Position numbers and translations under genes: made by a program
Virus record (IMG/VR): IMGVR_UViG_3300037791_000022
Span: 1 to 30,487 of that record
DNA from: a virus
Taxonomy: Duplodnaviria; Caudoviricetes
Direction: 5' to 3' (one strand)
DNA length: 30,487 nt
Part shown: positions 9,044-27,346 of the stretch, piece after piece
How positions within the stretch are numbered: the first letter of the stretch is position 1
How the letters are laid out: each line of letters opens with the position of its first letter
Notes under the pieces: model-generated
Databases searched by the model: none
What the model saw: only the letters and a program-made list of their open reading frames with translations
Told to the model about the DNA's origin: nothing

Positions 9044-9089
9044 TCTTTTTCCTTATATTACAGACACTTAGGCAAATAGAGAAGTTGAC

Positions 9090-9124
9090 TTCCGGAACAC
9101 TTTTCCGACACACGTATCCGGACC
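9090..9124. promoter_or_regulatory. Putative integrase arm-type sites, left arm
   Basis: TTCCGGAACA (9090), TTCCGACACA (9103), ATCCGGACC (9116) at 13-bp period; same motif and period recur at 27216-27251. Confidence 0.65.
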
Positions 9125-9229
9125 TATCTGCAAGCGGCGACCTACGGCCCGACTCGAAAAAGCCTGCCAGGTCGTTACTGACGGGCGGTTCCACTCAAAG
9201 TCTCTAATAACTGTGCAGGGCGTAGGGAG

Positions 9230-10072
9230 TCAGATCACAAGGTCAAGCGGCAGATCAGCTATATCGCGTAGCCGCTGACCTTCAATCATGGTCTCGACCA
9301 GCTCCAAGGTCTCACGTTCTTGCTCGCGCAAGGTCTCCACCAGCTCCGGCAACGCGAAGTGATATACACAATCCATGTCGCCGGTCCCAAGTGCGATTGC
9401 AGCGATGCGTGACGGCACAGGCTCCGCCGTGACAGCGACGATATGCGGCAACCGGCCCTTACGGTTCCTGACAAGGTTCAAGGCCTCAGAACGCGTGTTC
9501 TGAACACGGTCTGACCGGATAGTGAGCTTGCAGCTAATCGAAGCGTGAAGCGTCGCGCTCGCACCGTTGGCGGCGCGCAGCGCTGTGCGCCGGGCAACCG
9601 TCTCATCCACAAGGGCAACATTCACATTGATGTTCTCATCCGGTTCAGGTGCGCGGATCACAACAACGTCAGGCTTGATCAGGTAGTCAGTGCCCAGGTG
9701 GGTCTTCAACTCGCGGCTGGCATCCGCCAGAGCGCGCAGCTCATCCAAGTGCGAATACTGATCAAACTGCGAAATTGCCTGCCCCTTCTCGACTGAAAAA
9801 TCTCCGGGGCGCAAGTGTGTGAGCTGCGCGAAGCACTCGGCAATGAACGTCTGGCAGGCCGTCTCGAACATATGCCCAGCGGTCTGCCCGGCAGGCTTCT
9901 CCGCGTGGTTTTGAGTGGTGCCGATCTTTGCCACAAGTGCCGTTGCTATTTCACGGCTCGACTTGTTCGACACGTCCGCGACTGACGGCACACCCTTGGT
10001 CTCCGTGATTGGCCCAGCCAAACACTCTGCATGAAACCGTCTACGCGCCTCAAGAAGCCAAGCGTCCATCAC
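9230..10072 (-). CDS. Type II restriction endonuclease, NgoMIV family (predicted GCCGGC)
   Basis: AGQTAG..FE, IKPDVVVIR, LHASISCKLTIRSDRVQNTRSEALNLVRNRKGRLPHIVAVTAEP: the PD...SCK..RSDR signature of NgoMIV. Overlaps the MTase stop by 4 bp. Confidence 0.9.
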   Translation of the reverse strand: MMDAWLLEARRRFHAECLAGPITETKGVPSVADVSNKSSREIATALVAKIGTTQNHAEKPAGQTAGHMFETACQTFIAECFAQLTHLRPGDFSVEKGQAISQFDQYSHLDELRALADASRELKTHLGTDYLIKPDVVVIRAPEPDENINVNVALVDETVARRTALRAANGASATLHASISCKLTIRSDRVQNTRSEALNLVRNRKGRLPHIVAVTAEPVPSRIAAIALGTGDMDCVYHFALPELVETLREQERETLELVETMIEGQRLRDIADLPLDLVI

Positions 10073-11040
10073 GCCACCGCATGTAGACGGCGCGCCGTTA
10101 TTGCAGCCTTGAGGCTCTGTGCGACAGCTTGCGCGACCGGCGGCGGGAACGCATTACCAACCTGCCGATAGGCGGCGGTCTTGCGTCCCGCGAACTGCCA
10201 CTCGTCCGGGAACCCCTGCAAGCGCGCCACCATGCGCACGGTCAGGCGCGGCATCCCCAAGAAGTCCGGGTCTGGTGCTTCGTCTGCGATGGTCTTGCCG
10301 TTCACGTTCAGGGTCTCCCACGCGCGCTTGGCTCGCGTCGGCCCCAGATCAGGCCCGCCATGCTTCTTGGAGCCACCCACGATGGTGGGTGCGATCTCAT
10401 CCGCTTGTGTGCGCCACGCGTCTGCACCCTTCCAGCCACGCGCGGCCATGAGATCATGCAACAGCTCACCCACGGTCGGGGGCTGCATGTCGCCGCCTTT
10501 AGGCCACTCGAACTTGTCCGCATATTCTTCGCGCACTGCCACGATCACAACACGGGGCCGGAGCTGCGAGACGCCAAAGTCACTTGCGTTGTATAGGTGC
10601 CAGTCGGCGAAGGTGTAGCCCATCTTCTTGAGCTGGGTCTTGAGCTTCTGCCGATAGTCATGGAACACGGCGTCCATAAAGCCCCGGACGTTCTCAAGCA
10701 GAACCGCCTTTGGGCGCACTTCGTCAACAACGCGCAGTGCTTCTGGGAAAAGGTCACGCTCATCGGCGGCACCAAGCTGCTTTCCAGCCTTCGAAAACGG
10801 AGGGCACGGAACACCACCGGCCACAAGATCAACACCAGCAAAAGGCCGCGCGTCGAACTTGGTCAGGTCGGCCTGTTGACCTTCGACTACGTTCCACTTG
10901 GGGCGATTCAGCACCAGTGTCTTGCGACACCAATCATCGACTTCAACAAGAGCTTGGTGGCCAAAACCGGCCCGTTCAACACCAAGAGCCTGGCCGCCTG
11001 CACCAGCGCATAGCTCCAGTGATGTAAGATTGCCCTGCAT
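10069..11040 (-). CDS. C5 DNA cytosine methyltransferase, M.NgoMIV/M.NaeI-like
   Basis: Motif I LCAGAGG, IV GGVPCPPFS, VI ENVRG, VIII QLRPRV, IX RLQGFP, X YRQVGNA; target-recognition region APTIVGGSKKHGGPDLGPTRA. Confidence 0.95.
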   Translation of the reverse strand: MQGNLTSLELCAGAGGQALGVERAGFGHQALVEVDDWCRKTLVLNRPKWNVVEGQQADLTKFDARPFAGVDLVAGGVPCPPFSKAGKQLGAADERDLFPEALRVVDEVRPKAVLLENVRGFMDAVFHDYRQKLKTQLKKMGYTFADWHLYNASDFGVSQLRPRVVIVAVREEYADKFEWPKGGDMQPPTVGELLHDLMAARGWKGADAWRTQADEIAPTIVGGSKKHGGPDLGPTRAKRAWETLNVNGKTIADEAPDPDFLGMPRLTVRMVARLQGFPDEWQFAGRKTAAYRQVGNAFPPPVAQAVAQSLKAAITARRLHAVA

Positions 11041-11115
11041 ATTGCGCCCCTTTTCTTGGTTTTTATCACATATCGCGGAATGACGAACAAAGAGTCAACA
11101 ATATTGCCGATGCAG

Positions 11116-11337
11116 CTATGCCACCTCCACATCCTTCAAGATACACCGGGGCCATACACCTCGTATCTCACCTAGGACATGGACAGCAGCTGTATCCGGA
11201 TCATGATGCCCCGTCCTGAGAAGATGCAAAGCTAACTCTGACCGGAGTTCAGCATAAAGCTCGTCGTCAATGTAGACTTCTGGTCTAGCCTTCGGCAGCC
11301 ACATAGCCATAGCCTTTCCAAGTTCTCTTGCCCTCAA
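11116..11337 (-). CDS. Small hypothetical protein
   Basis: 73-aa ORF co-oriented with neighbours and filling the gap; no motif, start uncertain. Confidence 0.35.
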   Translation of the reverse strand: MRARELGKAMAMWLPKARPEVYIDDELYAELRSELALHLLRTGHHDPDTAAVHVLGEIRGVWPRCILKDVEVA

Positions 11338-11536: not shown

Positions 11537-12280
11537 TTAGTCGCAATCCCTTCGACTTAACCGCCGTTCCCACCACCCCGGAAGCCCAGCTTCGATCCTC
11601 TCCTCACTCCACCCAGCCTTCCGACGTCCATAGCGCCAGACTTTCTCTGCGTTCTTGTCTTTCCTATGCAGTTCACGCTCCTCGGGGGTCATGGCGTCCA
11701 GCACGTCCTTCGGCGTCATGACGTTGGGCTTATCCCTGACCTTCCGGCGACTGGCGTTGTATTCTTCGCGGCCCTCACCTGCGCGCCACTCATCGGTTGC
11801 ACGGCGTTTGCGCCACCCATCGTCCGTTGCACGCTCCAGTTCCACCTTGAGGGCGCGTTTAGCGGCTGCCATTTCGGCCATCGCCTCGTGATACTCATCA
11901 CTACCCGGTATGGCCACGTCACGCAGGATTTCAGCGCCTGTGAGCCGCTGACGTGCCTTGTCGTAGGGTGTCAGGACCGGAAGGTCATCAATGCGCTCAC
12001 AGGTCGGTTCTGTGGCCTCTTTGGCGTCGTCGAAATCGTCAAGGCCCCCGTCAGGATCACCAAGCACCAACTCGTCAATCTCATCGTCTTCATCATCGGC
12101 CATGAGTTGATCGAACTCCGCCAAGAGCGCTTCACCTTCTGCGGCCTTGCGCGCCAAGTATTGTTCATCACTAACCCCAACTGAAAGGTCACTCTGGGTG
12201 CGCTCCGGTTCTTCACCGTCGAAGAACGCGCGCAGGTTCTCGATTTTCTGCGCATCCGGGTCGGAGCTTGCTATAGTCAT
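11537..12280 (-). CDS. Hypothetical protein (acidic N-half, basic C-half)
   Basis: 247-aa ORF with protein-like composition, co-oriented with the element; no family recognised. Confidence 0.7.
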   Translation of the reverse strand: MTIASSDPDAQKIENLRAFFDGEEPERTQSDLSVGVSDEQYLARKAAEGEALLAEFDQLMADDEDDEIDELVLGDPDGGLDDFDDAKEATEPTCERIDDLPVLTPYDKARQRLTGAEILRDVAIPGSDEYHEAMAEMAAAKRALKVELERATDDGWRKRRATDEWRAGEGREEYNASRRKVRDKPNVMTPKDVLDAMTPEERELHRKDKNAEKVWRYGRRKAGWSEERIEAGLPGWWERRLSRRDCD

Positions 12281-12334: not shown

Positions 12335-12793
12335 TTACGCGGCCTTCGGCAACGCCATGTCGATCAGACGGGCGAACTCAGACGCAAGACCACGGTCGAA
12401 CACCTTGGCTTCGCTCTTGGCCGGAATGGAAATCGCGATCCCCTGTCCCTTACCCTTCAAGCCGAATTTCATCTGCTTGTCCGCGTTGATGCTGATCACG
12501 GTTCTTGCGTTCGCCTCTCCGGAGAGGAATGCGCGTATCTCAGACGCAAGCTGCGCCGCCTCCGCGTGTGAGAAACTGACGGCCTCGCCATCGTCGAACT
12601 TGATTGCCAAGCCATCAGCCAGCGCGTTGATTTTCACGCCAGGTATCTCATGTGCGACAAGGCCCTCATTCTGGGCAATTTCGATAAGCTTGGCCAGAAC
12701 CTCGCTCATGTTCACCGCGCCCATGTTCGCGGCCATCTGCTTGAGCTGCGTAAGGCGTTCATGGGGAAGTTTGATTGTGGGGTGGTTAGACAT
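12335..12793 (-). CDS. Hypothetical protein with probable N-terminal ribbon-helix-helix DNA-binding domain
   Basis: ATG 12793 with AGGA RBS; PTIKL (strand), HERLTQLKQMAANMG (helix A), NMSEVLAKLIE (helix B). Confidence 0.6.
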   Translation of the reverse strand: MSNHPTIKLPHERLTQLKQMAANMGAVNMSEVLAKLIEIAQNEGLVAHEIPGVKINALADGLAIKFDDGEAVSFSHAEAAQLASEIRAFLSGEANARTVISINADKQMKFGLKGKGQGIAISIPAKSEAKVFDRGLASEFARLIDMALPKAA

Positions 12794-12890: not shown

Positions 12891-13115
12891 TCTTGTAGCC
12901 GGAAGGGGTTCTTCTAGCCGGAACAGGTCAAAACTAACCTTTTGCCCGTTCTCTCCTATTTAATTATGTATATGATAAGTAATAGGTAGAAATAAGTTAC
13001 TATAATACGTGCAAAAGGTTAGCTTCCCGGACGGGCAAAAGGTTAGCCTATCTCCGGGTGGTGAAGCCGCTCCGGGCGGGCAAAAAGTTAGCCTTCTTAG
13101 CGGGCAAAAGGTTAG
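12891..13115. repeat. Iteron-like repeats around an AT-rich core; putative replication origin
   Basis: 15-mer CGGGCAAAAGGTTAG at 13008 (1 mismatch), 13032, 13077 (1 mismatch), 13101 and inverted at 12934; AT-rich 12957-13007; 14-mer TCTT(G/C)TAGCCGGAA at 12891 and 12910. Confidence 0.8.
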
Positions 13116-13124
13116 TCTCCCCGG

Positions 13125-13475
13125 CTACCCCTCGGCCCCGAACCACTGCACCAGCTTAACCTCAAAGCTCCACGGCGCGGCGTCCACTCCTGACCATGCC
13201 GGGGCAGTCCACTTCTGTGCCGTGGCGAAGCCGCGCGGCTGATACCAGAACGGGCGATAGCCGCCACGATCTTCGAAGAACTGCCGGATGGTGCCGAACT
13301 GCGCTTCTGTGAGGGCGTCCCACCGCAAGGAAATCTCATATGCGATATGGTTCAGCCCATTCGGCGTTGCCTGTGTGTAGCCGTCGCCGAACTCTGCTTT
13401 CAACAGCTTGATCTTGGGCGCGTGTTTGGTGCCCGGCGCGGGTGCAATCGGCGGGGTGAAAGTCGTAAGTGCCAT
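13125..13475 (-). CDS. Phage minor/distal tail protein (lambda gpM-like)
   Basis: FGDGYTQATPNGLN and FFEDRGGYRPFWY motifs; coupled to the tape measure gene. Confidence 0.85.
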   Translation of the reverse strand: MALTTFTPPIAPAPGTKHAPKIKLLKAEFGDGYTQATPNGLNHIAYEISLRWDALTEAQFGTIRQFFEDRGGYRPFWYQPRGFATAQKWTAPAWSGVDAAPWSFEVKLVQWFGAEG

Positions 13476-15940
13476 TAGCGCGCCCTCCGGGAATTGAGCA
13501 TATTCCCCGGCCTCATCTGCCTGCGCATCTCATCACAGACAACGCCACGCATTGTCCCTTCGATTTCGCGTGAGACACGCTTCGCAAGGTCTGCATTTTG
13601 TTCCGGGCTACCCGCTGATCCGTTCACCGTCACCGGCGCAGAGATATTCACCACCTGCCCAGAGTCCGCCACAGGCCCGGAGCGCGCCGCCTGTGCGCTT
13701 CTCAGGGGTGCCGCGCCTCCTACCAACCCACCAGTGGCATAGCCCCTCCTGGCGGCGCTGTGCAGCGCCTCAAGATTACCAACACCAATCCGGCGGGTGG
13801 CCTCTTTCGAAAGAACATACTCACCCTTGTGGACAATCCCGGCGGGTTCGAACTTACCACCGTCGCCGGTGTAGCCACCTTCCGCAAAACCACCACCAAG
13901 CATGGTCGCGAAGCTACTAAGCCACCCTTGCCCACCACCAGCAAGGCCACCCAGCAGGCGCAGGAAGAACTTCTGCGCCGCATAGCGCGCCAGGTCTTTC
14001 ATCAAGCTCGCCATCGCCTCGCGGAAAGTCATGGTGCCGGTGATCAGCCCTTCAAAGGCGTGGGCCGCCGAATTTTCAATCTGCATCCGGGCATCGTCGA
14101 TCTTGCGCAGCCCCTCGGCTGCCATATCAGCCTTCTTGGAGCTATCCGCGTAGGCCTGCGCCAGCCGCGCGATCTCGGACCGCAGCGCCGGTGTAACGGA
14201 CAAGCCCTGCATCTGCGCGGAATGCAAAAGCTCCGCTTCGCGCTTTGCGATCTCGATTGCCATTCCATATTCACTACCGGCAGCAGCGGCTGCCAACATG
14301 GCGGCGGCCTCAAGCTCAAGCGCCTTGGTTTCATCTACGATAGACGCGACAGCCCGGCCAAAAGCATCGTCGCTCGCACCACCGCCCTTCCCGGCGTCCC
14401 TGCGCGCAATGTCGGCTGCAATCTTGGCCGCCGCTGTGGCCTCTGCCTGTGCGCGTGTCAGGGTGACGCCATCGGCAGCAGCGCGCTTCTGCACCGCCGC
14501 GATTTCACGCTCCAGGGTAAGACGTTCACGTGACATGGCATTCCGCTCAGCCTCTCCGGCAAGGAAGCCGTCCAGCTTGGCCTTCTCGGCTTCCCAGTTC
14601 CGCATCGACTCTGCGTCAGCGTCCCGGAAGGTCTGCATCGGCGTGGGCACATGACTCCCCGGCAGGGCCGACTTGAGCGATTGCGCCATGCTGAACGCAG
14701 CACCAAGCGCACCAGAGAGTCCGTTGATACCAGCGATCACACCGGCAAAGCGCTGCGCGTCGATCTCGCCAAGCTCAGTTGCAACGCCCTGAGCTTCACC
14801 CACCAACTCAGACAGACGACTTTCAAACGTCTCGGCAGAGATTGCACCCGTGCTGAACTCGTCCACCAGGGACTTCATGCCTGCCAGAATATCTGCAAGC
14901 GCATACCTGGCGTCTTCGTCGTCGATCTCGAACACGCGGATACCATCCGGCCCAGTCAGGCGATTGATGTGCGCGAACAGGTCGTCATAGGTATTCTTGA
15001 TTTCGCGGATATTGGCTTGATGTGCCTCAACATCATCGCGGTTGGCGGCAAGAGCATCATACAGCTCATCACCCAGCACCGCCCTACCCTGTCTCTCATC
15101 CGGGAAAATGTCGTCCAGCTTGGCGCGCAGGTCAGCGACTTCAACAACGCCATCGGCCACCGCAACAGCCACGCGCTTGCCGAACATGGCGATACGCTGT
15201 GTCAGCTCATCGAACTTGCGACTGACCTCATCGGCCTTGTCGATCACATCATCACCCAGCACAAGGCCAAGCTCATGCGCGCGCTCTACAGTGCGGCGCA
15301 AGCCGTCTTCACCCTGATCCACGAGTTCGACAAAGCGCTCACCTGCCGTGCCACCAAATAGCTCATCGGCCACCCGGATACGCCCGGCCACGTCCAGACG
15401 CCGCATCCGGCCCATGATCTCAAGCAACAGCTCAGACGGGTCTTTCAGCTTGTCCTTCAGCTCGTCGGCACCATAGCCCAGCCGGGCAAATGCCTCGGCA
15501 GCCGGTCCTTTACCTGTGATGATGAACTCATCGGCACGCAGGTTCAGCTCTTTCAGGCCGTCCACAAGAGCATCAACCGCGATGCGGTTCTGATCAGCGA
15601 CGAACTTCCATTCTTGGAATACCTGGGCAGATACGCCAGAGCGTTTAGCCTCATCGCCGATCTGGGCAATCCCTCGCGTAGTGTCGCGCAGTGCCCGGAC
15701 GGTGGCCGCCGATCCCAACCCGGTCAGCAAAGGCAAGCTCATGCGCTTGAACACAGTGGCCATGCCGTCGCCCATCTTACCATAGGTCTTGCCGATCCGG
15801 TCTGCCGACTGCTTAGCCCGGCGCTCCATGTTCTGCGCGGCACGGCGCTGCGCACGGTCGGCGCGCGCAAGACCCTTCTCAAGCTGGGTGATCCGCGCTT
15901 CGACGGGAACAATCAGGCCCGGCATGGTTACATCATTCAT
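13475..15940 (-). CDS. Phage tail tape measure protein
   Basis: 821 aa, Ala-rich and helical; C-terminal FAEGGYTGDGGKFEPAGIVHKGEYV motif of lambdoid tape measures. Confidence 0.9.
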   Translation of the reverse strand: MNDVTMPGLIVPVEARITQLEKGLARADRAQRRAAQNMERRAKQSADRIGKTYGKMGDGMATVFKRMSLPLLTGLGSAATVRALRDTTRGIAQIGDEAKRSGVSAQVFQEWKFVADQNRIAVDALVDGLKELNLRADEFIITGKGPAAEAFARLGYGADELKDKLKDPSELLLEIMGRMRRLDVAGRIRVADELFGGTAGERFVELVDQGEDGLRRTVERAHELGLVLGDDVIDKADEVSRKFDELTQRIAMFGKRVAVAVADGVVEVADLRAKLDDIFPDERQGRAVLGDELYDALAANRDDVEAHQANIREIKNTYDDLFAHINRLTGPDGIRVFEIDDEDARYALADILAGMKSLVDEFSTGAISAETFESRLSELVGEAQGVATELGEIDAQRFAGVIAGINGLSGALGAAFSMAQSLKSALPGSHVPTPMQTFRDADAESMRNWEAEKAKLDGFLAGEAERNAMSRERLTLEREIAAVQKRAAADGVTLTRAQAEATAAAKIAADIARRDAGKGGGASDDAFGRAVASIVDETKALELEAAAMLAAAAAGSEYGMAIEIAKREAELLHSAQMQGLSVTPALRSEIARLAQAYADSSKKADMAAEGLRKIDDARMQIENSAAHAFEGLITGTMTFREAMASLMKDLARYAAQKFFLRLLGGLAGGGQGWLSSFATMLGGGFAEGGYTGDGGKFEPAGIVHKGEYVLSKEATRRIGVGNLEALHSAARRGYATGGLVGGAAPLRSAQAARSGPVADSGQVVNISAPVTVNGSAGSPEQNADLAKRVSREIEGTMRGVVCDEMRRQMRPGNMLNSRRAR

Positions 15941-15950: not shown

Positions 15951-17600
15951 TCAGAAAGTGAATATCTCGGCATCATCGCCGGTGTAGTTGGATTTGTTGC
16001 TTTCACCGGCCACGGCGCGGTGAACGGCCATCGCAGATGCGATAGCGCCATCAATGCGGTCGGTCTTCTTGCCCTTGTGCATCCGCACAAGGCCGGTGGT
16101 CTCGTTGCGGCTGGCAACAACGCTATCGAAGTGGTGGCGCAAGACGGGGTGGCCGTTGTGGCGGATCAGGTGCCCGTTGACGGTGCGCTCAAGGTCGCCA
16201 ATCGCAACGCCCATGCTCAAGGGTGCCTGCCGATGTTCGATCACCGGCAACCCATCATCATAGAGCCGCTGCATGATCTGCCGGGCAAGGTGAGGGTCAA
16301 AGGCGATCTCGCGCACGTCATGGCGCGCGGCCAGCTCGCGCAGGTGATCCTCTACCGCCTCGGGGTCGATGATCGGGCCGGGCGTGGCCGTGATCAGCCC
16401 TTCATCGCGCCACCGCTCATAGGGCACCCCGTCGCGCTCGCTGCGTTCTTTCAGATCGTCGCCAGGCACAAAGAACCAAGGCCGGATACTGATCTGCCCA
16501 TCATCATGCAGCCACGCAGCCACTACAGCGGCGGTGTCGCCGCTCAGGGCCATGTCCACACCCACCCAGCACGGCAGCGCCTCAAGGTCGGTTTCGTCAT
16601 CAGCGAAACGCCGGGCGTCATAGGTCGCCATGTTGAACAGCGGGTCGCGGCTGTTCCCGTGCCAGATGTTTAGATTGTATTGTTGGAAGCTATAGCGCTC
16701 TGCCGGGTGGTCTTCGGCCTCTTTCGCCAAGCTGCGCAGCCCGGACAGGCTGGGGAAGCCGTACTTGAGGCCGGGGTTCACCCGGTGCCACACATCTTCG
16801 CAATGCCAATCATCATCCGGTTCCGCACCAAAGATGATCGGCAGGAACTCGGGGTTGTCGATCTCACCCAGAGCAACACGCCGGGCGTAGTCATACTGTT
16901 CGGCGGCAAGGGTCTCATGGCCCCGGCCTGCCGTCGTGGCAATCACCAGCAAGCTATCATCGGTCTTGGCTAGGCCGGATTTCAGGGCTTCCCACAGATC
17001 CCGCCCCGACCATGCGTGTATCTCATCGGCCAGCACAAAGGCCGGGGTGGTGCCATGCTGCGCACGGCCATCACTGGACACGGCGCGCAGCCGCGCACCG
17101 CTGTTCAAGTCGGTGATCTGCTTGGCACTGTTGAAGGCGTCGTGAATGCGTGTTGCGGCCACAAGGCGCTTGTCTTCGCGGATGATGTCTGCGGCCTCGC
17201 GAAAGCCGATACCAGCCTGTTCCCGATCAGACGCAGCGAAGATCACCTGACCGGCAGGCACCTTTTCGGGGCCAATCACATGCAACAGAGACAGGGCAGC
17301 GGCCAAGCTCGTTTTGCGGTTGCCTCTCGGCAGCATCAAGAACACGGTCTTGACGATGCGCCGCCCGTCTTCGTGGCGCGGCCCGTAGATGCGCCTGACG
17401 ATGCGCTCCTGGAACGGCACAAGCTGGAAAGCACGGGGGTGCCGGTTGGTGTTCGCGGCCTTGGGTGCGCGGTTGTCATTCACCGCCGCCGGGTGGCGCA
17501 GCCGACGCAAGAACATCACAGCGCGTTCCCCATGCCCCAGCGGGTCCGGGATGGTGCTGCCGTCTTCGATCCAAGCCGGGTATGTGCTGGCCGCGCTCAT
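15951..17600 (-). CDS. terL: Terminase large subunit
   Basis: Q motif LVPFQERIV, Walker A variant PRGNRKTS, Walker B VLADEIH, ATTAG, nuclease GVDMALSGD and DRIDGAIA. Confidence 0.95.
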   Translation of the reverse strand: MSAASTYPAWIEDGSTIPDPLGHGERAVMFLRRLRHPAAVNDNRAPKAANTNRHPRAFQLVPFQERIVRRIYGPRHEDGRRIVKTVFLMLPRGNRKTSLAAALSLLHVIGPEKVPAGQVIFAASDREQAGIGFREAADIIREDKRLVAATRIHDAFNSAKQITDLNSGARLRAVSSDGRAQHGTTPAFVLADEIHAWSGRDLWEALKSGLAKTDDSLLVIATTAGRGHETLAAEQYDYARRVALGEIDNPEFLPIIFGAEPDDDWHCEDVWHRVNPGLKYGFPSLSGLRSLAKEAEDHPAERYSFQQYNLNIWHGNSRDPLFNMATYDARRFADDETDLEALPCWVGVDMALSGDTAAVVAAWLHDDGQISIRPWFFVPGDDLKERSERDGVPYERWRDEGLITATPGPIIDPEAVEDHLRELAARHDVREIAFDPHLARQIMQRLYDDGLPVIEHRQAPLSMGVAIGDLERTVNGHLIRHNGHPVLRHHFDSVVASRNETTGLVRMHKGKKTDRIDGAIASAMAVHRAVAGESNKSNYTGDDAEIFTF

Positions 17601-17602
17601 CG

Positions 17603-19485: not shown

Positions 19486-19591
19486 CATTTATCCAACGCC
19501 CTGAAGAGTCAGCGCTATTTTTGACGAGGTTCGGGTTTCCACCAGTGCCTCAACGGATATATTGACAGTAGCAACAGAGGAGGACCGGACA

Positions 19592-20107
19592 ATGAAACAA
19601 GCACCTGTGTGGGTATTCGGCCTAGCTTTGGCGATGGCAGCAACCGGGCCCGCATCTGCAAAAGACTTCCTCTGGTCGCCGAAGAACTTCGATGGAGCGT
19701 GGGTTGAAGTCCGTGACAACGCAAAAAACGGGTGCTGGACCAACATTGGCGAAAGTCAGACGTATGCAGAAGACCAGCTAAAGATCGCAGGCTTCAAAAT
19801 GATTGAGAAGCCCGAAGTTGAAGAGGATGGCAACAACCCCTTGCTGGACGGCTTCAGAGTGAAGTTGATCATTGATGTGAGAGGATCACGCTGGAAAGAT
19901 GGACTGTGCGTCGGCCATATAATGACGCACTTTCTCGGATCAGTCGTTCCTAGGGATGATCAGGACAGCATTATCGTCAATCCGATTGGGCCAACAGAGG
20001 CATGGACGATCTGGGACGAGAAGAACTTCAACACATATGTGCTGGACCACATCAAAGCCTATGTTGGCTTCTGGATAAGAACTGGTGAGGTAGAGGAAGA
20101 AAAGTGA
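19592..20107 (+). CDS. Exported hypothetical protein (moron-like cargo)
   Basis: GAGGAGG RBS; signal peptide MKQAPVWVFGLALAMAATGPASA; opposite strand and lower GC than structural genes. Confidence 0.8.
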   Translation: MKQAPVWVFGLALAMAATGPASAKDFLWSPKNFDGAWVEVRDNAKNGCWTNIGESQTYAEDQLKIAGFKMIEKPEVEEDGNNPLLDGFRVKLIIDVRGSRWKDGLCVGHIMTHFLGSVVPRDDQDSIIVNPIGPTEAWTIWDEKNFNTYVLDHIKAYVGFWIRTGEVEEEK

Positions 20108-20124: not shown

Positions 20125-20210
20125 CCTGAAAAAGTTATTTAGATGCTATCTTGTGCGGACCTCCCCCCGCCGGTCCCCTCTAACCCGCGAAAGTTGGAAC
20201 CCACCCCGCT
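20125..20210 (-). other. Putative cos / packaging site
   Basis: Minus strand GGGGTGGGTTCCAACTTT...GGGGACCGGCGGGGGGAGG; a GC-rich non-coding island resembling cos regions found after the HNH gene in HK97-type phages. Confidence 0.55.
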
Positions 20211-20302: not shown

Positions 20303-21280
20303 ATGACCGACAAAACAAGTAGAAACTATCTCATCAACCAATCAGCAGAAGAGGAAGCGCGCTTCGAGGCATCACGTGAGCAAGAACTTTCAGCACTTAG
20401 AAATGAACTTCTGCGACAGCGCGATGAAAACATTGAACTTCGAAGTAGTCTTGAGAAGGAGCGTCATGCTGCGCGCGCGCACATCGACGCTAGAGAGAAA
20501 GAGCTAGATGCCAAGCATGCAAAGCTCCGGAAAGAACTCGCCCTCCGTGAAGATCGCTTGGAAAAAGAACTACAAGATCAACTTCAAAGACTAGAGGCTG
20601 AAAGAGAGCAATCAGCGCAACGTAGTTTCCGTTTGATCAACGAAGCCCAAGAAGAAATGGAAAGAGTAGCAAGTGAGCGTAACCGCTTGAAACTCGAAAT
20701 GGAGGCCTTCGAAGAAGAGAAAGAGCGGTATGACGAAGAAGCAAATGAAAAACTGCAAAGAACCTCATCAAGTTTCGTAGAAGGTGTGATCACCGATCTG
20801 CGCACACGAGAAAAAAATCTTATGGGAAAATCGACCATCTGGTCTGTCTTTGGTGGGGGCGCTTTACTATTTGCCTTGGCAATTGCAGCAATTGCCATCC
20901 ACAGCACGTCGACTGATCTAGCCGATGAGATTCCGGTTACGAATGTTGTGTTTTTGTTAGTAAAAGGCACGTTCTTTATGGGTATCGCAGGTGTTATCGC
21001 CCGTTTCGCCTTCGTATTATCCAAACGGTATTTAGCTGAATCTCTCCGTGTTTCCGACATCATCCATGGCGTTTCGTTTGGACAGATGTATGTGCAGAGT
21101 TATGGTGCCACTGCTGGCTGGGACCAGGTTAAGGAAGCGTTCTCCGAATGGCACGACAAGCCAAAACAAGATCACGAAAACACCGACAGTCAGTTCGAAG
21201 AGAACCTCGACTTTGGTCACGCCCCAAACAAGGACCTTCTGAAGGAAATCCTTGATACAGTTAAAGGCCTGAAAAGCTAA
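20303..21280 (+). CDS. Coiled-coil protein with two transmembrane helices (cargo, unknown function)
   Basis: About 170-aa E/R/K-rich coiled coil, then two hydrophobic segments; AT-richer, opposite strand. Confidence 0.82.
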   Translation: MTDKTSRNYLINQSAEEEARFEASREQELSALRNELLRQRDENIELRSSLEKERHAARAHIDAREKELDAKHAKLRKELALREDRLEKELQDQLQRLEAEREQSAQRSFRLINEAQEEMERVASERNRLKLEMEAFEEEKERYDEEANEKLQRTSSSFVEGVITDLRTREKNLMGKSTIWSVFGGGALLFALAIAAIAIHSTSTDLADEIPVTNVVFLLVKGTFFMGIAGVIARFAFVLSKRYLAESLRVSDIIHGVSFGQMYVQSYGATAGWDQVKEAFSEWHDKPKQDHENTDSQFEENLDFGHAPNKDLLKEILDTVKGLKS

Positions 21281-21300: not shown

Positions 21301-21645
21301 CTAAGAGAGTGCGTCCCTTTCCGCTCGTTGCTTGTGGCGGTTGTGACAGGACGCACAAAGCGGCTGCCAGTTGGTGCGATCCCAAAACAAGCGATCATCA
21401 CCACGGTGGGGCGTGATGTGATCCACCACAGTCGCAGGTGCGCTGCACATCCGGCAGGTGGGATAGAGCTTGAGAAAGGCGTCACGGGCTTCGCGCCATG
21501 CACGGTTGTAGCCGCGCTTCGCAGCACTGGGGCGCTTGGCATCGTGGCGCTTGTTCCGGGCACGGGTGAGCGCGATCTGGCAAGCGCAGCGCTCACCATG
21601 CGGCACGATCTGCCCACAGGTGCAGATATGGGGCGGTTTAGGCAC
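21301..21645 (-). CDS. Phage packaging-associated HNH endonuclease (HK97 gp74-like)
   Basis: CRMC...VVDHITPHRGD...NWQPLCASCHNRHKQ; GTG start. Confidence 0.93.
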   Translation of the reverse strand: MPKPPHICTCGQIVPHGERCACQIALTRARNKRHDAKRPSAAKRGYNRAWREARDAFLKLYPTCRMCSAPATVVDHITPHRGDDRLFWDRTNWQPLCASCHNRHKQRAERDALS

Positions 21646-22271
21646 TAAAGGGCCATCCCTTCGCGCATCTCCGACAGCTCTTTCAGGGCGCGCAGCCCTG
21701 CCCGGTCAAAGTCAGGATCAAGGCCCAGGTCGGTGTTCTGCTTGCGCTGTTCTGCGGTCAGCCCGGTGTCGGTATCTTTTGCCTCACTATGAATGGCCTT
21801 GAGCTTGGCGATATGGGCGGTGAAGGCGTCGGTGATCTCTTGCGGCGTGGCGTTCCATGCCGTTTCAGACGTCCAGCCAAGCCATCCGGTAGCGAAGCCG
21901 TAAAGCTCTTTGAACAGCTCACCCCACGGCGTAGGGGTGACCGTGCTGGGCTGCTTGGTGGTGGTCTCCGGTGTCTCAGGGAAGAACGCCGCCACCAGCT
22001 CAATGCACGGCCCCTGTGCGGCCCTCTGGAAGTCTTTGAGGGGGTGGGCAGCGGCATGGGCGAACAGCGGCTCTGTGGCCTCCATACCGGCAGCGGTGGT
22101 GATCACATGCCAGATCGTGAGCGTATCGAACTCTTCGATCTTGCGCAGCAACTCAGGGAAGCCGCCATGCAAGCGCTCAAGCTGAAGTGCAGCCCGCAAA
22201 GACGGGCGCAGGAACACGGTGGTGCCACCGTATTCCAATGCGATTGCGTCATATGCGAGCTGCGTTCTCAT
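21645..22271 (-). CDS. Tail assembly chaperone, probable G-T type fusion
   Basis: C-terminal ATGWLGWTSETAWNATPQEI is gpT-like; N-terminus resembles the 23821-24147 protein. Confidence 0.65.
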   Translation of the reverse strand: MRTQLAYDAIALEYGGTTVFLRPSLRAALQLERLHGGFPELLRKIEEFDTLTIWHVITTAAGMEATEPLFAHAAAHPLKDFQRAAQGPCIELVAAFFPETPETTTKQPSTVTPTPWGELFKELYGFATGWLGWTSETAWNATPQEITDAFTAHIAKLKAIHSEAKDTDTGLTAEQRKQNTDLGLDPDFDRAGLRALKELSEMREGMAL

Positions 22272-22279: not shown

Positions 22280-23824
22280 TTACGCGGCCATCTGAAGCTT
22301 GCGGAAGGCGTCCGGCCGCACCACACCAGCACCCACGCGGCGCCGCGCATGGTAACGCATCAGGCCATTCGCGCGCTGCGTGTAGGGGTCGGCCAAGACG
22401 GCCAGCGACAAGCGGTCATAGATGCGGTAGCCGCGCTTGAAGTCACCGAAGATGATCGGTTCAGCACCCGCGCCAATGTCCGGCATATCCACCGCTTCGA
22501 TCACCGGGCGGCCCAGGATCGTTTCCGGCTGTCCTGCCTGGTAGGACGGCTGCCACAGGTAGTTGCCGTGACCATCCTTCAAGGTGCGAATGGCGGCAAG
22601 GGTCTGGCCGTTCATCACCCAGGAGCCTGCATTCCGATAGGTGGCCGGCAGGGCATACATGAGCGCGATCAGCTCATCCGGGGAAATTGCAGCCTGGGCG
22701 GTCGCCACGGTCTCGGCGATGTTCGCATTGACCATGAACCCGGCAGGCTCAAGAGCGGTGTTGCCGCTCACGAACGACACGTTCTCTTTCTGGCCGAAGT
22801 CTTCGGCAAGGGCCAGATTGACCTCGCTCAGCACGTTGGCGCTGTCTTCTGCGAGCTGAAGGGACATATCCACGAACGTGGCGATCTCCTTCACTGCGAT
22901 TTCCGACTGATCAAAGGTCGGTTCGCTTCCCGTCCGGGCGTCGGTCTCGCCAACCCATGCGGCATTGGTGATCCCGGTGCGCTTCGGCAAGATGATGTTC
23001 GCCGCGCCGGTGGTGCGCACATCGGCAATTGCCCGGATCGGGCTGTATTCCACCAGGTTGCGAATGAACTCGCCGCTCACGTCCTCGGGGGCAAGGATAT
23101 GGTTCGCGGTGTCGCTGGCCGTGTTCAGCGATTTCTTCTCGCCGGTGGACAGGTAATGGGTGAACGCCTTGACCTCTTCGGCAGGCATCACCGGGTTAGC
23201 AGCGCCGGTGATCTGGGGCCGGTTGCCTTTGGCTTCAAGCCGGTCCAGCCGGTCCTTGATCTCGTTGAACGCCTTGGTGTCGATCTGCGGCACCTGCGGC
23301 GTATCGTTGGCCGGGGTCGCGGCCTTCTTCTCGGTTTCGATTTCCTCGTTTTCCATGTTGGGGGTCTCCTTGAGGGGCTTCGGGGTTGCTTTCACCTCTG
23401 TGACACGCGCGGCGGGATGAACCGGGCGTTTGCAGAGAGAAATTTCAGTGACAGTGACGGCCTTGAATGTGCGTCCGCCTTCGGGACGCTTTTCATAACC
23501 GCCATGCTTGAAGCCGATGGAAAGGCCGGTGATCACACCGGCTCTAAGGTGGCGGTGCGCCTTCTGTGCCGGGTCAATGCCTTCGACAAACAGACGGCCC
23601 TTCACCTCAAGACCGCGCTCGGTCTCGGTGAAGTCTTCCCAGATACCGACAACCTGCCCCTGATCGTGCTCCATGCAGATCGGCAGGGAAGCCGGGAAGG
23701 TGAATGCGCCCTTCTCAATCACGTCTCCTACAGAGTCGGGTGAAAAGGGCCATGCGACACCACTCACGGTGCCTGCGTCGTCGGTGACGGCCAGCGCTGC
23801 CTTGATTTCAATGCGATCGGTCAT
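22280..23824 (-). CDS. HK97-family prohead protease fused to major capsid protein
   Basis: N-terminal DSVGDVIEKGAF, EHD, GLSIGF, EISL (S78-type protease); C-terminal AWVGE, IRTLKDGHGNYLWQP, ILGRPV, IFGDF (HK97 capsid). Confidence 0.95.
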   Translation of the reverse strand: MTDRIEIKAALAVTDDAGTVSGVAWPFSPDSVGDVIEKGAFTFPASLPICMEHDQGQVVGIWEDFTETERGLEVKGRLFVEGIDPAQKAHRHLRAGVITGLSIGFKHGGYEKRPEGGRTFKAVTVTEISLCKRPVHPAARVTEVKATPKPLKETPNMENEEIETEKKAATPANDTPQVPQIDTKAFNEIKDRLDRLEAKGNRPQITGAANPVMPAEEVKAFTHYLSTGEKKSLNTASDTANHILAPEDVSGEFIRNLVEYSPIRAIADVRTTGAANIILPKRTGITNAAWVGETDARTGSEPTFDQSEIAVKEIATFVDMSLQLAEDSANVLSEVNLALAEDFGQKENVSFVSGNTALEPAGFMVNANIAETVATAQAAISPDELIALMYALPATYRNAGSWVMNGQTLAAIRTLKDGHGNYLWQPSYQAGQPETILGRPVIEAVDMPDIGAGAEPIIFGDFKRGYRIYDRLSLAVLADPYTQRANGLMRYHARRRVGAGVVRPDAFRKLQMAA

Positions 23825-24147
23825 GTGGCTGCCTCACCTTCTTCGGCGGCACCACCCCAGCGCGCGTCCAGCACGTCCAGCGCCAGCGGATACAGCGCAT
23901 CAATCGGCGTGTTCCGGGCGTAGGTATCGACAAGCTGCGCGGCCCTCTCCGGGGCGGTGCCGCCACCGATCAGGCCAAGGCGGATCACCTCAATCAGATC
24001 GGTGAGTTTGAACTGCATGTTGACGGCGCGCAGGTAGAGCGCACCGATTCCAAGATCAGCAAGGCGCTCAAGCTCTGCGATCATGTCATCGGTCAGCGCA
24101 AAGATGTATTCGCCGTCACCGAAGAATGCGGTGTGGGTCAGGGTCAT
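23821..24147 (-). CDS. GTA-gp10-like protein (tail assembly chaperone G-like)
   Basis: AFFGDGEYIFAL...ELER...EVIRLGLIGGG...A..LV pattern; 108 aa. Confidence 0.75.
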   Translation of the reverse strand: MTLTHTAFFGDGEYIFALTDDMIAELERLADLGIGALYLRAVNMQFKLTDLIEVIRLGLIGGGTAPERAAQLVDTYARNTPIDALYPLALDVLDARWGGAAEEGEAAT

Positions 24148-25322
24148 GCGGCCTTGTCCTTGCTCGTGGTGGTGTAGGGATTTTCCAGAGTGTCACCGCC
24201 GTCTTTGGGCGGCAGGTTCAGCCCGGCGCGCACCTCGTTTGCGGTGAGCGCGCCCATACTGCGATACTGGCCGTAGGCGGTGGCACGGGCTGCGGTGTCG
24301 GTGGTCAGCAGATCGTCGGTGACGGCCTCAAGGTAGGCTTCCTTGCGTTCCTCGGGGGTCAACAGGCACCGGGCGTAGGACCAGCTCCAGGCGGTTAGCC
24401 ACGGCTTGAGCGTGATCTGCATGAACTGCCGGGCCATTTCCTCGGTGTTGGACCAGGTGCCCCGGCTCAGCTCAAAGAGCATCGTGGGCGGCACCCGGAA
24501 TACGCGCGCGATCTCCCTAATCTGTTCAAGGCGGTTTTCGGCGAATTGAGCGTCTGCAAGCGTGGTAGATAACGGCAGGTAGTCCATACCTTCATCAAGC
24601 ACGGCAGTGCCGCCCGATTTCGTCCCGCCGTGGGTGCTGAACCAGCTTGCAGCCAGCTTCTTCTTGGCGTCCACATCAAGGATTTTCTGCGCCCGGATCA
24701 CGCCAGAGGGGCGGCCACCATTGGCGAACAAGCCGCCGATATGCTGTTCAAAGCTGAGTGCCAGGGCGATAGCTTCCCGGCCTAGTGTGATCGGCGACGC
24801 GCCACCAATCGCTTCAACGCGCAGCACATCGCGATAGGAAAGGCGAACCTGCCCGGCGTCGGTTGTGACACGGTAGAAGGGTTCGCCGTCTGTCTCTTTG
24901 TCAGGCTGCACGCTGCCCGGTTCCAGCCGGTGCAGTTCATACGGAGTGCCATCCGCGAGGCGGATCACCTGGGCGTGGCCTGCCCCGTTCAAAAGGGCAT
25001 CAAGGGTCAGGTCGCGGCGCAGGTCCGCGGCGCTTGTCCATTCATTTGCCTCATCATGCACAAGGCGATAAGCCGGATGATCGGTGAGCGCGGCCTTAGT
25101 GCTGCGCTCATAGAGTTTGACCGGAAGCGCGCCGATGGTCTCGGAGATAAGCCCGACAGCACAGGCCACGGCAGGAACGCGCATGGCGTTGCTGGGGCCG
25201 ATGGACACGCCAGACGCGGTAGGCAGCACCCCGAACAAGCTCAGGGCGTCGGGGTCAGTCAGGGTCAGCGACTTCTGTTCAGTGCCGAACCCAAGCGCAT
25301 TCTTGATCTTCTGTAAGGACAT
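24144..25322 (-). CDS. HK97-family phage portal protein
   Basis: AVACAVGLISETIGALP, LLNGAGH, FANGGRPSG, VLDEGM, IARVFRVPP, TANEVRA. Confidence 0.95.
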   Translation of the reverse strand: MSLQKIKNALGFGTEQKSLTLTDPDALSLFGVLPTASGVSIGPSNAMRVPAVACAVGLISETIGALPVKLYERSTKAALTDHPAYRLVHDEANEWTSAADLRRDLTLDALLNGAGHAQVIRLADGTPYELHRLEPGSVQPDKETDGEPFYRVTTDAGQVRLSYRDVLRVEAIGGASPITLGREAIALALSFEQHIGGLFANGGRPSGVIRAQKILDVDAKKKLAASWFSTHGGTKSGGTAVLDEGMDYLPLSTTLADAQFAENRLEQIREIARVFRVPPTMLFELSRGTWSNTEEMARQFMQITLKPWLTAWSWSYARCLLTPEERKEAYLEAVTDDLLTTDTAARATAYGQYRSMGALTANEVRAGLNLPPKDGGDTLENPYTTTSKDKAA

Positions 25323-25409
25323 GTGATCCGTCGTGAAATTTGCAGTGTTGCAAAAATACCACACTTAGATTCACGGCGGAAGCAGAAAGTTACAAGCGCA
25401 ACCTTCTGG

Positions 25410-27215
25410 CTACTTGGGCATGAGGTGGTCGAGACTCAAACCGGGATAAGCAATGGCGTTGATCAGCTCTGCGCGCTTCTCAAGCAACCCCTGGGGCATA
25501 ACGCCATAACGCCCGGTCATGGTCGTGTCGCCGTGCCCCATCAAGAATTTGAACTCGTGGTCGAGATACCCAGCCCGGCGCAGGGCATCGGCAGCACCAT
25601 GCCGGAAGGAATATTGGCTGTAGCCGCGCCCATCCTTGATCCCGAGGCCGGTCAGGTAGCGCGAAAACATACGTGAAAAGTCCGCCATCATCTGCCCCCG
25701 CGCGTTACGCTCTGCCTTCGGGAACAGTCTGTCGTGACCAGCCCGCACCATTCGCGCATGGTAGTCGATAAACCCAAGCTTTATTAGTTGGTCATGCACC
25801 GGGAGAATACGCTTCGAATTCTCATTCTTGACGCTCTTGCCGCCGTCGCCATCGTCGGTGATATGCATGATCCAGTGGCCATGCTCTTGGCGCACATCCG
25901 TAACCGCAAGCAGCCCAATCTCTCCGGGCCGGGCACCCGAGAAAAGCATAATCAACGGCACCCAATATCGGTGATCCCGGATCAGCACGTTGCCCGGCTT
26001 CTTAATGAAACGCGGCTGCTCGTCACTCTGGCACCCAGTGAAAAGCGGCGACTTGAACAAGATGTTCATCTGCTCAGCACTAAAGGTGAGTGTCTTTGAA
26101 TTTCTCTCCTTGTTGAGCGCCATGCCGTCCACCGGGTTCTGTTCAAGATACCCATGATCCACAAGCCACCGGCAGAACGCGCCCAAGCTGGATAGGTGGC
26201 GGTTGACGGTGCGCGCGGTGATCGTGGGCTTGCCGACTTGCTCGTTGTGCTTGACGGCCTGTTCAATCGACATGCCTTTGAAGGCTTTGGTTTCGGCTGC
26301 CTTCACCGGGAACTTCAACAGAAGCGCCTTCCATTCGCGCACGGCCTTCTTGTCGATCTCGGTAACAGGGAACGTGTTGCCGACATACTGGACAAACAAG
26401 CCAACGTCGCGTCGTGCCTGTGCCAGCGTGTCGGGCTTGACCTGTTTTGGGTTCTCGGTGGCGTAGATGTCGAACACTTCCAAGACAGACTGCCCAGGCT
26501 CCGCAACGGCTCTGCGCGCGCCACTGGCGGGCTTGACGATAGGGTCTAGGGGTTGTCCTGCGTAATTGCCCTCATCGCGCTCTACGGTGCGTCTCAGCGC
26601 CTCTATCTCTGCGCGCATCATCTGACGGGCCAGCGCGTCCCGATCAGGCGATCCCGGCTCTATGAGCAGCTTGTTTCGGGCAAGGAAGTCGTCAACTTCG
26701 TGGTCGATCAACGCAGTGTTCCCGGTGCTCATATGCTTGCGCAGCTCTGATAACTTAGCGCGCCGCGCTTTGGCGTCGACGCTCTCGGCCCCTTTGAGCT
26801 GATCTTGCAGAACGTGAATCTCTAAGGCGGCATCGAGCATCGCAAGAGGGTCGGCTGTGTCGATGTTCTCGCGCTGCACTCTTTCGACGGCCTGTTCTGT
26901 CGCGGTTTCAATATCAGCATCGGTCGGTAGGTTGCGGCGGCGATCCTCATCCCGCTCAAGACCTTCGGTGTAGTGCTGCCAGACAGCAACGGCTTTGTCG
27001 TCGTCAGTCAGGATGCGCCGGGCGCGCAGCTCATCGAACTCACGCCGCCATTGTTCGATCACCGGCCACAGCAGCCGCTTCGCGGTGGCCTCATCCTTCG
27101 TCTTGAGGGACTGCTTGCGCGTCGTGGTGCCGACGATCTCCACAAGATCAGACGGCACATCAAGCCGGGCGTAGTAGGTCGCTCCACGTCGCCAAAGGTA
27201 AGTATGTCTGCCCAT
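25410..27215 (-). CDS. int: Tyrosine integrase with DUF6538-like N-terminal arm-binding domain
   Basis: N-terminal YLWRRGATYYARLDVPSDL...SLKTKD; catalytic SGARPGEI, VKN, YSFRH, MGH, GRYG; adjacent to attR. Confidence 0.93.
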   Translation of the reverse strand: MGRHTYLWRRGATYYARLDVPSDLVEIVGTTTRKQSLKTKDEATAKRLLWPVIEQWRREFDELRARRILTDDDKAVAVWQHYTEGLERDEDRRRNLPTDADIETATEQAVERVQRENIDTADPLAMLDAALEIHVLQDQLKGAESVDAKARRAKLSELRKHMSTGNTALIDHEVDDFLARNKLLIEPGSPDRDALARQMMRAEIEALRRTVERDEGNYAGQPLDPIVKPASGARRAVAEPGQSVLEVFDIYATENPKQVKPDTLAQARRDVGLFVQYVGNTFPVTEIDKKAVREWKALLLKFPVKAAETKAFKGMSIEQAVKHNEQVGKPTITARTVNRHLSSLGAFCRWLVDHGYLEQNPVDGMALNKERNSKTLTFSAEQMNILFKSPLFTGCQSDEQPRFIKKPGNVLIRDHRYWVPLIMLFSGARPGEIGLLAVTDVRQEHGHWIMHITDDGDGGKSVKNENSKRILPVHDQLIKLGFIDYHARMVRAGHDRLFPKAERNARGQMMADFSRMFSRYLTGLGIKDGRGYSQYSFRHGAADALRRAGYLDHEFKFLMGHGDTTMTGRYGVMPQGLLEKRAELINAIAYPGLSLDHLMPK

Positions 27216-27251
27216 CTCCGCACCACCATTCCGGAACACCATTCCGGAACA
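27216..27251. promoter_or_regulatory. Putative integrase arm-type sites, right arm
   Basis: CACCATTCCGGAA tandem x2 (27224-27249) plus degenerate copy at 27216; abuts the integrase ATG. Confidence 0.65.
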
Positions 27252-27324
27252 GTTGTAGGATCAGAAGTGGTGTGATAGCAATAGCTTACGATAAAACAGG
27301 GGCTTAGAAAAAGTTGGATTTTGT

Positions 27325-27346
27325 TCCTGCCACCCCAGCCACTTTC
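27325..27346 (+). repeat. attR core (22-bp direct repeat, displaced tRNA 3' end)
   Basis: Identical to 9022-9043. Confidence 0.95.

Follow-up and report, generated by a model that had tools for sequence, protein, structure and literature searches.

The stretch of DNA analysed here (the window) comprises 30,487 nucleotides, positions 1 to 30,487 of the IMG/VR virus record IMGVR_UViG_3300037791_000022 (Duplodnaviria; Caudoviricetes), and contains at positions 9,044 to 27,346 an integrated element with genes for a phage head, a neck and a tail ruler. The element is bounded by exact 22-bp direct repeats (9022-9043 and 27325-27346), for which the rough chance expectation of any comparable repeat in 30.5 kb is ~6e-5, and the resulting att-to-att unit measures 18,303 bp. 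Its flanks are host genes, namely carB, a luxI/luxR pair with a histidine kinase gene on the left (3264-7276) and a single-module gene resembling those of nonribosomal peptide synthetases directly past attR (27321-29867). The host is likely a member of the roseobacter group, since the nearest relatives of the element sit in roseobacter-group records. All 21 open reading frames (ORFs) of the element were scanned against Pfam, PHROGs and NCBIfam, and the features related to integration, head formation, packaging and tail assembly are as follows:

8964..9038, plus strand: host tRNA-Gln(TTG), the insertion target (ARAGORN)
9022..9043, plus strand: att repeat on the tRNA side, 22 bp, exact, overlapping the 3′ end of tRNA-Gln
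13125..13475, minus strand: lambda gpM-like distal tail protein (PF05939, E 7e-15, under the curated cut-off)
13475..15940, minus strand: tape measure protein (TMP), 821 residues (phrog_10574, E 1e-129), whose C-terminal ~60 residues are of RHEph10-like type
15951..17606, minus strand: terminase large subunit, TerL (PF03354 and PF20441; Walker A/B-like motifs present)
17603..17992, minus strand: terminase small subunit, TerS, P27 family (TIGR01558, above cut-off)
17989..18309, minus strand: head closure protein (PF05521, TIGR01563)
18312..18731, minus strand: tail terminator, gp17/DUF3168 type (PF11367, E 3e-13)
18728..19162, minus strand: HK97-gp10-like tail completion protein, Ne1 (PF04883, phrog_5)
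19149..19445, minus strand: head-tail adaptor Ad1 (PF05135, phrog_40)
20128..20209, minus strand: non-coding-type motif between the HNH and neck genes, likely a cos/packaging site
21301..21645, minus strand: HNH nuclease (PF01844, phrog_2323)
21645..22271, minus strand: putative fused gpG-T-like tail chaperone, 208 residues (hhalign, T-type profile matches, fold)
22280..23824, minus strand: prohead protease-major capsid fusion, HK97 type (PF04586 and PF05065, TIGR01554)
23821..24147, minus strand: gpG-like tail assembly chaperone, 108 residues, TAC_11/GTA-gp10 family (Pfam/PHROG, AlphaFold model, BFVD, synteny)
24144..25364, minus strand: HK97-family portal (PF04860, TIGR01537)
25410..27242, minus strand: tyrosine integrase with DUF6538 (PF00589, PF20172; catalytic-type motifs present)
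27325..27346, plus strand: att repeat on the integrase side, 22 bp, exact

Structural neighbours overlap or lie at most 10 bp apart, the sole exception being a 1.9-kb gap between the HNH and Ad1 genes, and 45 bp separate the integrase stop from the portal ORF. The HNH nuclease is presumably a packaging cofactor of the HK97 type. Searches with the tail terminator and the 208-residue chaperone yielded a family set of 197 loci (designated by L numbers), many of which are redundant or partial. The core GG[AG]ACCGG at 20128..20209 recurs with conserved flanks in 110 of 136 distinct family loci, and this conservation, together with its position, makes it a likely cos or packaging site.

The 108-residue product is labelled as a tail tube by both Pfam (PF11836) and PHROGs (phrog_8985). 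It was rejected as a tube on the basis of its AlphaFold model (predicted local distance difference test score 89), which consists of a beta-hairpin and five helices, its best named BFVD match, which is a tail assembly chaperone, and its family context, as the family directly follows the true major tail gene in vB_LagS-V1 and vB_MseS-P1; Foldseek gave no PDB match at E<=0.001. The 208-residue product aligns with this chaperone (hhalign E 4e-5) and has a similar N-terminal fold, its modelled structure resembles tail assembly proteins, and over its C-terminal half it is similar to the small T-type ORFs found downstream of the chaperone in clusters resembling gene transfer agents (GTAs). Because a chaperone N-terminal fold is joined to a T-type C-terminal half, profile comparison and modelling indicate that the protein is a fused gpG-T-like chaperone. 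The TMP measures 666-922 residues in 103 distinct members, and its body has its best phage matches in RcapNL and phi2LM21. Among 37 host loci, gpM is found in six and gpI in three, each gene occurring singly and at scattered positions across members. A lone lambda gpI-like gene was observed at three different spots of the head/neck operon (L001:4153-4821, L019:5754-6407 and L178).

Both usual positions of a tube gene are closed in the window, because only 2 bp lie between the terminator stop and the head-closure ATG and 8 bp between the capsid stop and the chaperone start. The former gap is shorter than 250 bp in all 144 distinct family loci and the latter in 135 of 143. In five of the eight loci with a wide capsid-chaperone gap, the capsid gene is followed by an ORF of 128-131 residues (phrog_5707, function unknown), which is absent from the window and matched no tube profile (sequence profiles only). 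Optional post-capsid ORFs of 128-133 residues (phrog_5707) were noted at L016:5056-5442 and L015:4146-4547, and an ORF of ~95 residues with a weak phrog_12296 match follows the chaperone at L041:7872-8162; such post-capsid and post-chaperone ORFs could, at a guess, encode head decoration or spike base proteins. A profile of 21 GTA/HK97-type tube sequences detected no tube in six frames of the 197 loci and the window, and the tubes of pMPOP02 and RHph_X66 as queries gave no six-frame match in the same set. Similarly, no tube, gpL/K/J, holin or endolysin gene was recognized among 146 gap ORFs (plus-strand cluster representatives of at least 80 residues from 1133 gap ORFs, plus six picked ORFs), which contain defence-type cargo, spike-like and gpI-like genes. 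None of the 21 ORFs of the element matched gpL/K/I/J, a fibre, holin, endolysin, CI/repressor or primase, and no family locus contains a homologue of the tip genes, of Dit/hub/megatron type, that RcapNL and LagS-V1 carry. The element thus does not have the set of tube, tip, receptor-binding and lysis genes by which an autonomous siphophage is defined.

The sequence-only reading had described exact att repeats, a full-length integrase, uninterrupted and tightly coupled head, packaging, neck and tail genes including two chaperones, a TMP and a gpM-like gene, a neck module with no gap for a tube, and no gpL/K/I/J, fibre, lysis, CI or primase gene. These observations were borne out: the att pair lies at tRNA-Gln, the integrase ORF is uninterrupted, every named gene matched its family with coupling broken only at the HNH-Ad1 gap, both tube slots are closed in the window, and the 108- and 208-residue products are predicted to fold like tail assembly chaperones. 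The same reading overlooked a restriction-modification pair, two opposite-strand ORFs and the family-conserved cos-like site.

The element belongs to a large family, its 208-residue chaperone being present in at least 502 confirmed IMG/VR stretches. Twelve core genes occur in one order in all 40 host-genome loci that have the portal and TMP in view. A tRNA-linked att pair is present in 29 of 41 loci, a count that includes the window, with att-to-att distances of 16.6-18.7 kb; tRNA-Gln, -Val, -Leu, -Pro and -Thr are used as targets, tRNA-Gln being the one at 13 of 38 scanned host-genome loci. Several integrase types occur, and in L034, L083, L090, L096, L105 and L113 the integrase gene was seen on the opposite strand, at the distal end of the element. 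Median pairwise ratios of nonsynonymous to synonymous substitution rates (dN/dS) against close relatives are 0.095-0.23 in 16 of 18 genes tested, with one pair each for the TMP and the 247-residue ORF described below, no testable pair for gpM, and the 181- and 325-residue ORFs set aside. Both the conserved gene set and the dN/dS values well below 1 agree with what the sequence-only reading had looked for, and the phages of 35-45 kb that it had named as a possible refutation are absent, as none of the 197 loci is a close relative of that size. Some relatives carry broken genes, and defence cargo (abortive infection (Abi), PIN, AAA and methyltransferase genes) is abundant in members. A circular 17,494-bp Paracoccus marcusii 'plasmid' (NZ_CP157016.1, L292) is a member that has neither an integrase nor a tube and possesses a replication initiator and the full head/neck/TMP set. 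Plasmid-collection matches to a tube-less member were also obtained in S. meliloti. A close relative was noted on a 17,036-bp contig of a sequencing run; its integrase is a different one, and 445 bp are inserted between its head closure and TerS genes. No attP joint was detected in contigs of four sequencing runs, and no terminal repeats in the IMG/VR family loci examined. On the whole, these data indicate that the window element is intact and conserved and not a relic.

Several sisters of the element carry a tube. In the Methylorubrum plasmid pMPOP02 and seven distinct IMG/VR loci, a phrog_158 tube lies between the capsid and the 208-residue chaperone, whereas gene order and the head/neck/TMP set are otherwise alike (NC_010721.1 (L293), 20913-21356; L230, L235-237, L241, L242, L250, L252). 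In these sisters, gpM was seen relocated beside the HNH gene, and pMPOP02 is one in plasmid form that carries a Tn3 insertion. In two further loci, L355:5668-6198 and L357:1079-1609, the tube slot holds an RHEph10-type tube with 61% identity to that of RHph_X66. Tube-bearing members are scattered in a quick capsid tree (six changes for eight rows), suggesting that head and tail modules are exchanged among members; L267, L290 and L296, shown there as tube-less rows, do not belong to the family but are phages retrieved in other searches. In the same tree, the capsids of the family lie outside the GTA-like group. Although tube-bearing sisters exist, the whole near family of the window element is tube-less, and therefore its tube loss was not recent, which removes the recent deletion that the sequence-only reading had considered.

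Candidates for the source of the missing tail parts are provided by the RHEph10-like phages, which encode a tube, G, T, a TMP of ~1540 residues, gpM-L-K-I-J and a lysozyme, and whose tube family was found in 530 IMG/VR stretches. The top GenBank phage matches of the window gpM are RHEph10-like Rhizobium phages (42-46%), and both this protein and the gpI of L001 rank 100-122-kb Rhizobium phages first (RHEph10, RHph_X66; 42-49%). In lambda, the TMP C-terminus docks on the tail tip. With a profile of the helper TMP C-terminus (~60 residues), scores of at least 44 bits are reached by 105 of 108 tube-less and all four tube-bearing members (98 bits for the window), versus at most 6.6 bits for all six TMPs of GTA/HK97-type phages. 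The plasmid matches of gpM are ~116-119-kb alphaproteobacterial plasmids, including that of Sinorhizobium LM21; pLM21S1 is described as a phage-plasmid related to RHEph10 (PMC5537653, PMC7969092).

The chaperones point in the same direction. In lambda and TP901-1, the TMP is bound by G, and T is the partner that recruits the major tail protein (PMC4493119). With a profile of the helper gpT C-terminus, 124 of 144 tube-less members reach at least 10 bits (23.6 bits for the window), compared with none of eight tube-bearing members, one of 144 shuffled controls and none of five T ORFs of GTA/HK97-type phages. The chaperone ends of L178 and L254 are nearly letter-for-letter identical to that of the helper L247. 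A 'third type' of chaperone end gave 6.4 bits on L355, a score reached by none of 200 shuffles, which represents a weak link. Another chaperone end, with no match to the RHEph10 gpT profile, was observed in 14 tube-less members, mostly of rhizobial type (L015, L018, L021, L054, L061, L062, L064, L089, L093, L100, L110, L127, L128 and L175), and it is possible that this end reflects a second helper subtype.

Since two tail-protein ends match those phages, hybrid tails made from RHEph10-like helper parts are likely, and we consider it probable that the element is a satellite that would combine its own head, neck and ruler with a tube and a lambda-type tip supplied by an RHEph10-like helper of ~115 kb, which would give a chimeric tail. 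The sequence contains a tRNA-Gln integration between 22-bp repeats and complete HK97-type head and cos/HNH-type packaging sets. Helper infection or induction would lead to excision, replication and packaging of the ~18-kb genome into its own small head. The element TMP, judging from the C-termini, would dock on the helper gpL/K/I/J tip, in this case with the element's own gpM, while the gpG-like chaperone would coat the ruler and the T end of the fused gpG-T, which copies the helper gpT end, would recruit helper tube subunits. The terminator, Ne1, head closure protein and adaptor, all encoded by the element, would then connect its head to this tail, and cell lysis would be left to the helper. 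The expected particles would have small heads and tails about half the helper length (TMP of 821 versus ~1500-1590 residues). Scaled with the 10-15 nm per 95 residues given in PMC12987554, this would correspond to tails of roughly 85-130 nm, compared with 160-245 nm for the helper. We give about even chances to a broader proposal, in which a satellite family that spans the Alphaproteobacteria, with hundreds of members in Rhodobacterales and Hyphomicrobiales, would exploit RHEph10-like phage-plasmids of ~115 kb by means of chaperone mimicry. The gpG-T tip would have been swapped for the tube-recruiting end of the helper, allowing loss of the own tube, and three stages would be visible today (ancestral tube, captured helper tube and no tube), with chaperone ends tuned to helper subtypes.

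Several points weigh against this helper assignment. The chaperone-gpT match covers only ~15-20 residues and 20 of the 144 tube-less members score below 10 bits; moreover, the tube state and the chaperone-end state are co-inherited because the genes adjoin. The TMP end also matches the ~30-50-kb prophage contigs L249 and L251 (69 and 58 bits, respectively). The helper 'tube' is labelled by position and a weak PHROG major-tail match (E 7e-6), with no solved relative. The RHEph10-type tube was found in none of 46 host genomes (the control recovered 3 of 3 helper records), a count that is uninformative about a co-resident helper, and the GTA-type tube PF06199 in 41 of them. The cultured RHEph10-like matches all infect Rhizobium, and none with a roseobacter-type host turned up. 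The element terminator has no similarity to the presumed helper terminator and is closer to that of vB_MseS-P1. In addition, gpM and gpI are optional in host loci, as mentioned above, and the likely source run, available as contigs only, shows flat depth and no attP joint. Since the initial GTA/HK97-type profile missed the pMPOP02 tube, the absence of a tube, as judged by profiles, extends no further than the three tube families used as queries. Finally, the reading is built from sequences, and particles, excision and binding are all deduced from them.

Alternatively, the tail genes may be mainly decoys that poison helper tail assembly as a form of defence, with the satellite head taking a whole helper tail in the manner of phage-inducible chromosomal islands of the capsid-forming kind (cf-PICIs). 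The singly scattered gpI and gpM are what interfering subunits would look like, members carry much defence cargo, and tail-assembly interference is already known as a form of defence (PMC12987554, PMC11364771). We nevertheless regard this as unlikely, considering that the full-length ruler is of constrained length, that both chaperones, the terminator and Ne1 are also under purifying selection, and that tube-bearing sisters use the identical gene set.

Another possible helper would be a temperate phage of medium size and of the L249/L251 type, with a phrog_158 tube and a gpM-L-K-J tip; such phages are likely the ancestral stock of the module. The TMP C-termini already noted, the T-frame product of L249, which shares the core of the 208-residue chaperone, and the presence of the same tube type in tube-bearing sisters all fit such a helper; nevertheless, all eight phrog_158-tube sisters lack the C-terminal motif common to 124 of 144 tube-less members and RHEph10-like gpT, and the T end of L249 itself lacks it as well, making this helper improbable.

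The tube and tip could also be taken from the host GTA or a GTA-like/HK97-type resident prophage. Such a source would fit the PF06199 tube in most host genomes, the GTA-gp10 family of the 108-residue chaperone, the TMP body that ranks RcapNL and phi2LM21 first and the terminator profile match to vB_MseS-P1. On the other side, the C-termini of TMP (0/6) and T (0/5) are unmatched in GTA/HK97-type phages, the family has no homologue of the RcapNL/LagS-V1 tip genes, and the tip genes that some of its members carry, gpM and gpI, are of lambda type, so that this source is disfavoured and in our view very unlikely. The sequence-only reading had proposed an intermediate satellite that makes its own head and ruler and borrows tube, tip and lysis from a helper siphophage or the host GTA. 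Its core stands in the form of a conserved, size-constrained, purifying-selected, tube-less, satellite-like family, and the siphophage is favoured by the TMP and chaperone ends and by gpM and gpI, which lead to RHEph10-like phages with a lambda-type M-L-K-I-J tip; the host GTA is a poor candidate as source. A decaying or domesticated, immobile prophage remnant, as the lack of an attP joint or raised depth and the broken genes of some relatives might suggest, is scarcely credible, since the ORFs and the att pair of the element are intact and the family uses five tRNA targets and several integrase types, keeps within a narrow size range, shows dN/dS values far below 1, has a member in the form of a circular plasmid and includes no close relative of 35-45 kb among its 197 loci.

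Compared to known satellites, the putative tail-hybridizing element resembles the cf-PICIs (e.g., EcCIEDL933) in having a chromosomal integrase with att sites, its own capsid, protease, portal, connectors, HNH, TerS and TerL, and no lysis genes. It differs in its TMP, two chaperones, terminator, Ne1 and gpM, in the absence of AlpA or primase beside the integrase, in gene order, and in size (18.3 kb versus a 10-15 kb search range). The SatelliteFinder cfPICI model treats tail profiles as 'forbidden' (PMC10085698, bioRxiv 10.1101/2022.09.08.507074), and the element falls outside the cf-PICI definition on tail genes, on an AlpA/MerR/Stl-type regulator by the integrase and on a primase-replicase. 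Some cf-PICIs carry tmp according to Extended Data Fig. 10 of PMC12987554, and these may include members of this family. The phage-inducible chromosomal island-like elements (PLEs) of Vibrio cholerae encode TMP, a tail assembly chaperone (TAC) and BhuB, and chimeric tails were shown by experiment (PMC12987554). As in PLE11, the element encodes its own TMP, chaperone and one tip/baseplate part and no tube, with gpM by gene content in place of BhuB. PLEs use the helper capsid and the contractile-tailed ICP1, whereas the element has its own head and neck and a siphophage helper is indicated.

The EPIPs of Mycolicibacterium are small TMP-bearing satellites with head-tail proteins and no tube or holin, whose tail length differs from that of the helper (PMC12822802, preprint). 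Unlike the element, which is 18.3 kb long and has a tyrosine integrase, they are ~11-kb actinobacterial elements with a serine integrase, induce a resident prophage and have no chaperones or TerL listed (PMC12822802). The earlier statement that satellites normally lack a TMP or tail chaperones is therefore outdated, given PLEs and some cf-PICIs (PMC12987554) and EPIPs (PMC12822802). RHEph10-like phages and pLM21S1-type plasmids share gpM, gpI and the TMP and gpT C-termini with the family; being 100-122-kb autonomous phages with a tube, a full M-L-K-I-J tip and lysozyme, they are proposed as helper and not as kin. RcGTA-like clusters are characterized by a tube, a Dit/hub/megatron tip and the lack of integrase and att sites, none of which applies to the element. 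By analogy, the element resembles cf-PICIs in its head and PLEs in its tail, and although the chimeric-tail principle is already known from PLEs, the RHEph10-like helper candidate is the new part. No description of this family or of any satellite of RHEph10-like phages was found in the literature, subscription papers being largely outside the search, and passages of PMC13669383, PMC12486242 and PMC11409702 do not describe the family.

The remaining features of the element concern cargo and a possible replication region:

9230..10072, minus strand: NgoMIV-family type II restriction endonuclease, cargo (PF09015, E 7e-99; PADLOC REase_II, E 4e-84)
10069..11040, minus strand: C5 cytosine methyltransferase, cargo (PF00145, E 6e-66; 4-bp overlap with the endonuclease gene)
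11116..11310, minus strand: small ORF of ~65 residues (blastp to a small ORF of L002), recurring near the distal end of members
11537..12280, minus strand: 247-residue ORF in the slot of a HUH Rep-like gene of other members
12335..12793, minus strand: 152-residue conserved ORF upstream of the replication slot
12934..13117, no strand: iteron-like 12-bp repeats beyond gpM, four direct and one inverted
19562..20107, plus strand: opposite-strand cargo ORF (no family in Pfam/PHROGs/NCBIfam)
20303..21280, plus strand: coiled-coil/membrane opposite-strand cargo ORF (phrog_2628, function unknown; weak PADLOC rows, E>1e-4)

In the HNH-adaptor gap (19460-21300), the two opposite-strand ORFs flank the cos-like site, and the first of them is skipped in related contigs of two other sequencing runs; the same gap is filled by a helix-turn-helix-repeat ORF in 62 of the first 128 family loci. 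The small ORF at 11116..11310 had no Pfam, PHROG or PADLOC match. The presumed six-base recognition site of NgoMIV occurs once within 9044-27346, where the GC content predicts ~12 copies, and 32 kb of RHph_X66 contain it 69 times. A promoter/terminator scan gave a signal no higher than chance.

Among 37 host loci, the replication slot holds a HUH-type ORF in 11, the 247-residue ORF in 10 and neither in 16, the two never occurring together. The 247-residue product had no family match, nothing named in the ESM Atlas, and the HUH profile was negative on the window; from its slot, the protein may have a role in replication. The 152-residue ORF, present in 25 of the 37 loci, fell into unnamed ESM Atlas clusters only and could, at a guess, encode a regulator. 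As the sequence-only reading had seen, the operon ends past gpM at a repeat region, where the 12-bp repeats constitute a candidate origin, and the exact motif occurs twice or more in none of 46 host loci.

If the proposed tail chimerism is correct, an island that is very common in roseobacters and rhizobia and is usually recorded as an incomplete prophage would be an active satellite with a nameable class of cultured helpers, and would be the first satellite of RHEph10-like phage-plasmids found in our literature search. The selection of the tube protein by gpT is known mostly from lambda, and a short natural peptide swap could map how the gpT domain makes this choice. Such elements would also disseminate defence genes carried as cargo, of which the restriction-modification pair of the window is an example, and would join a cf-PICI-style own head to a PLE-style chimeric tail in a siphophage system.

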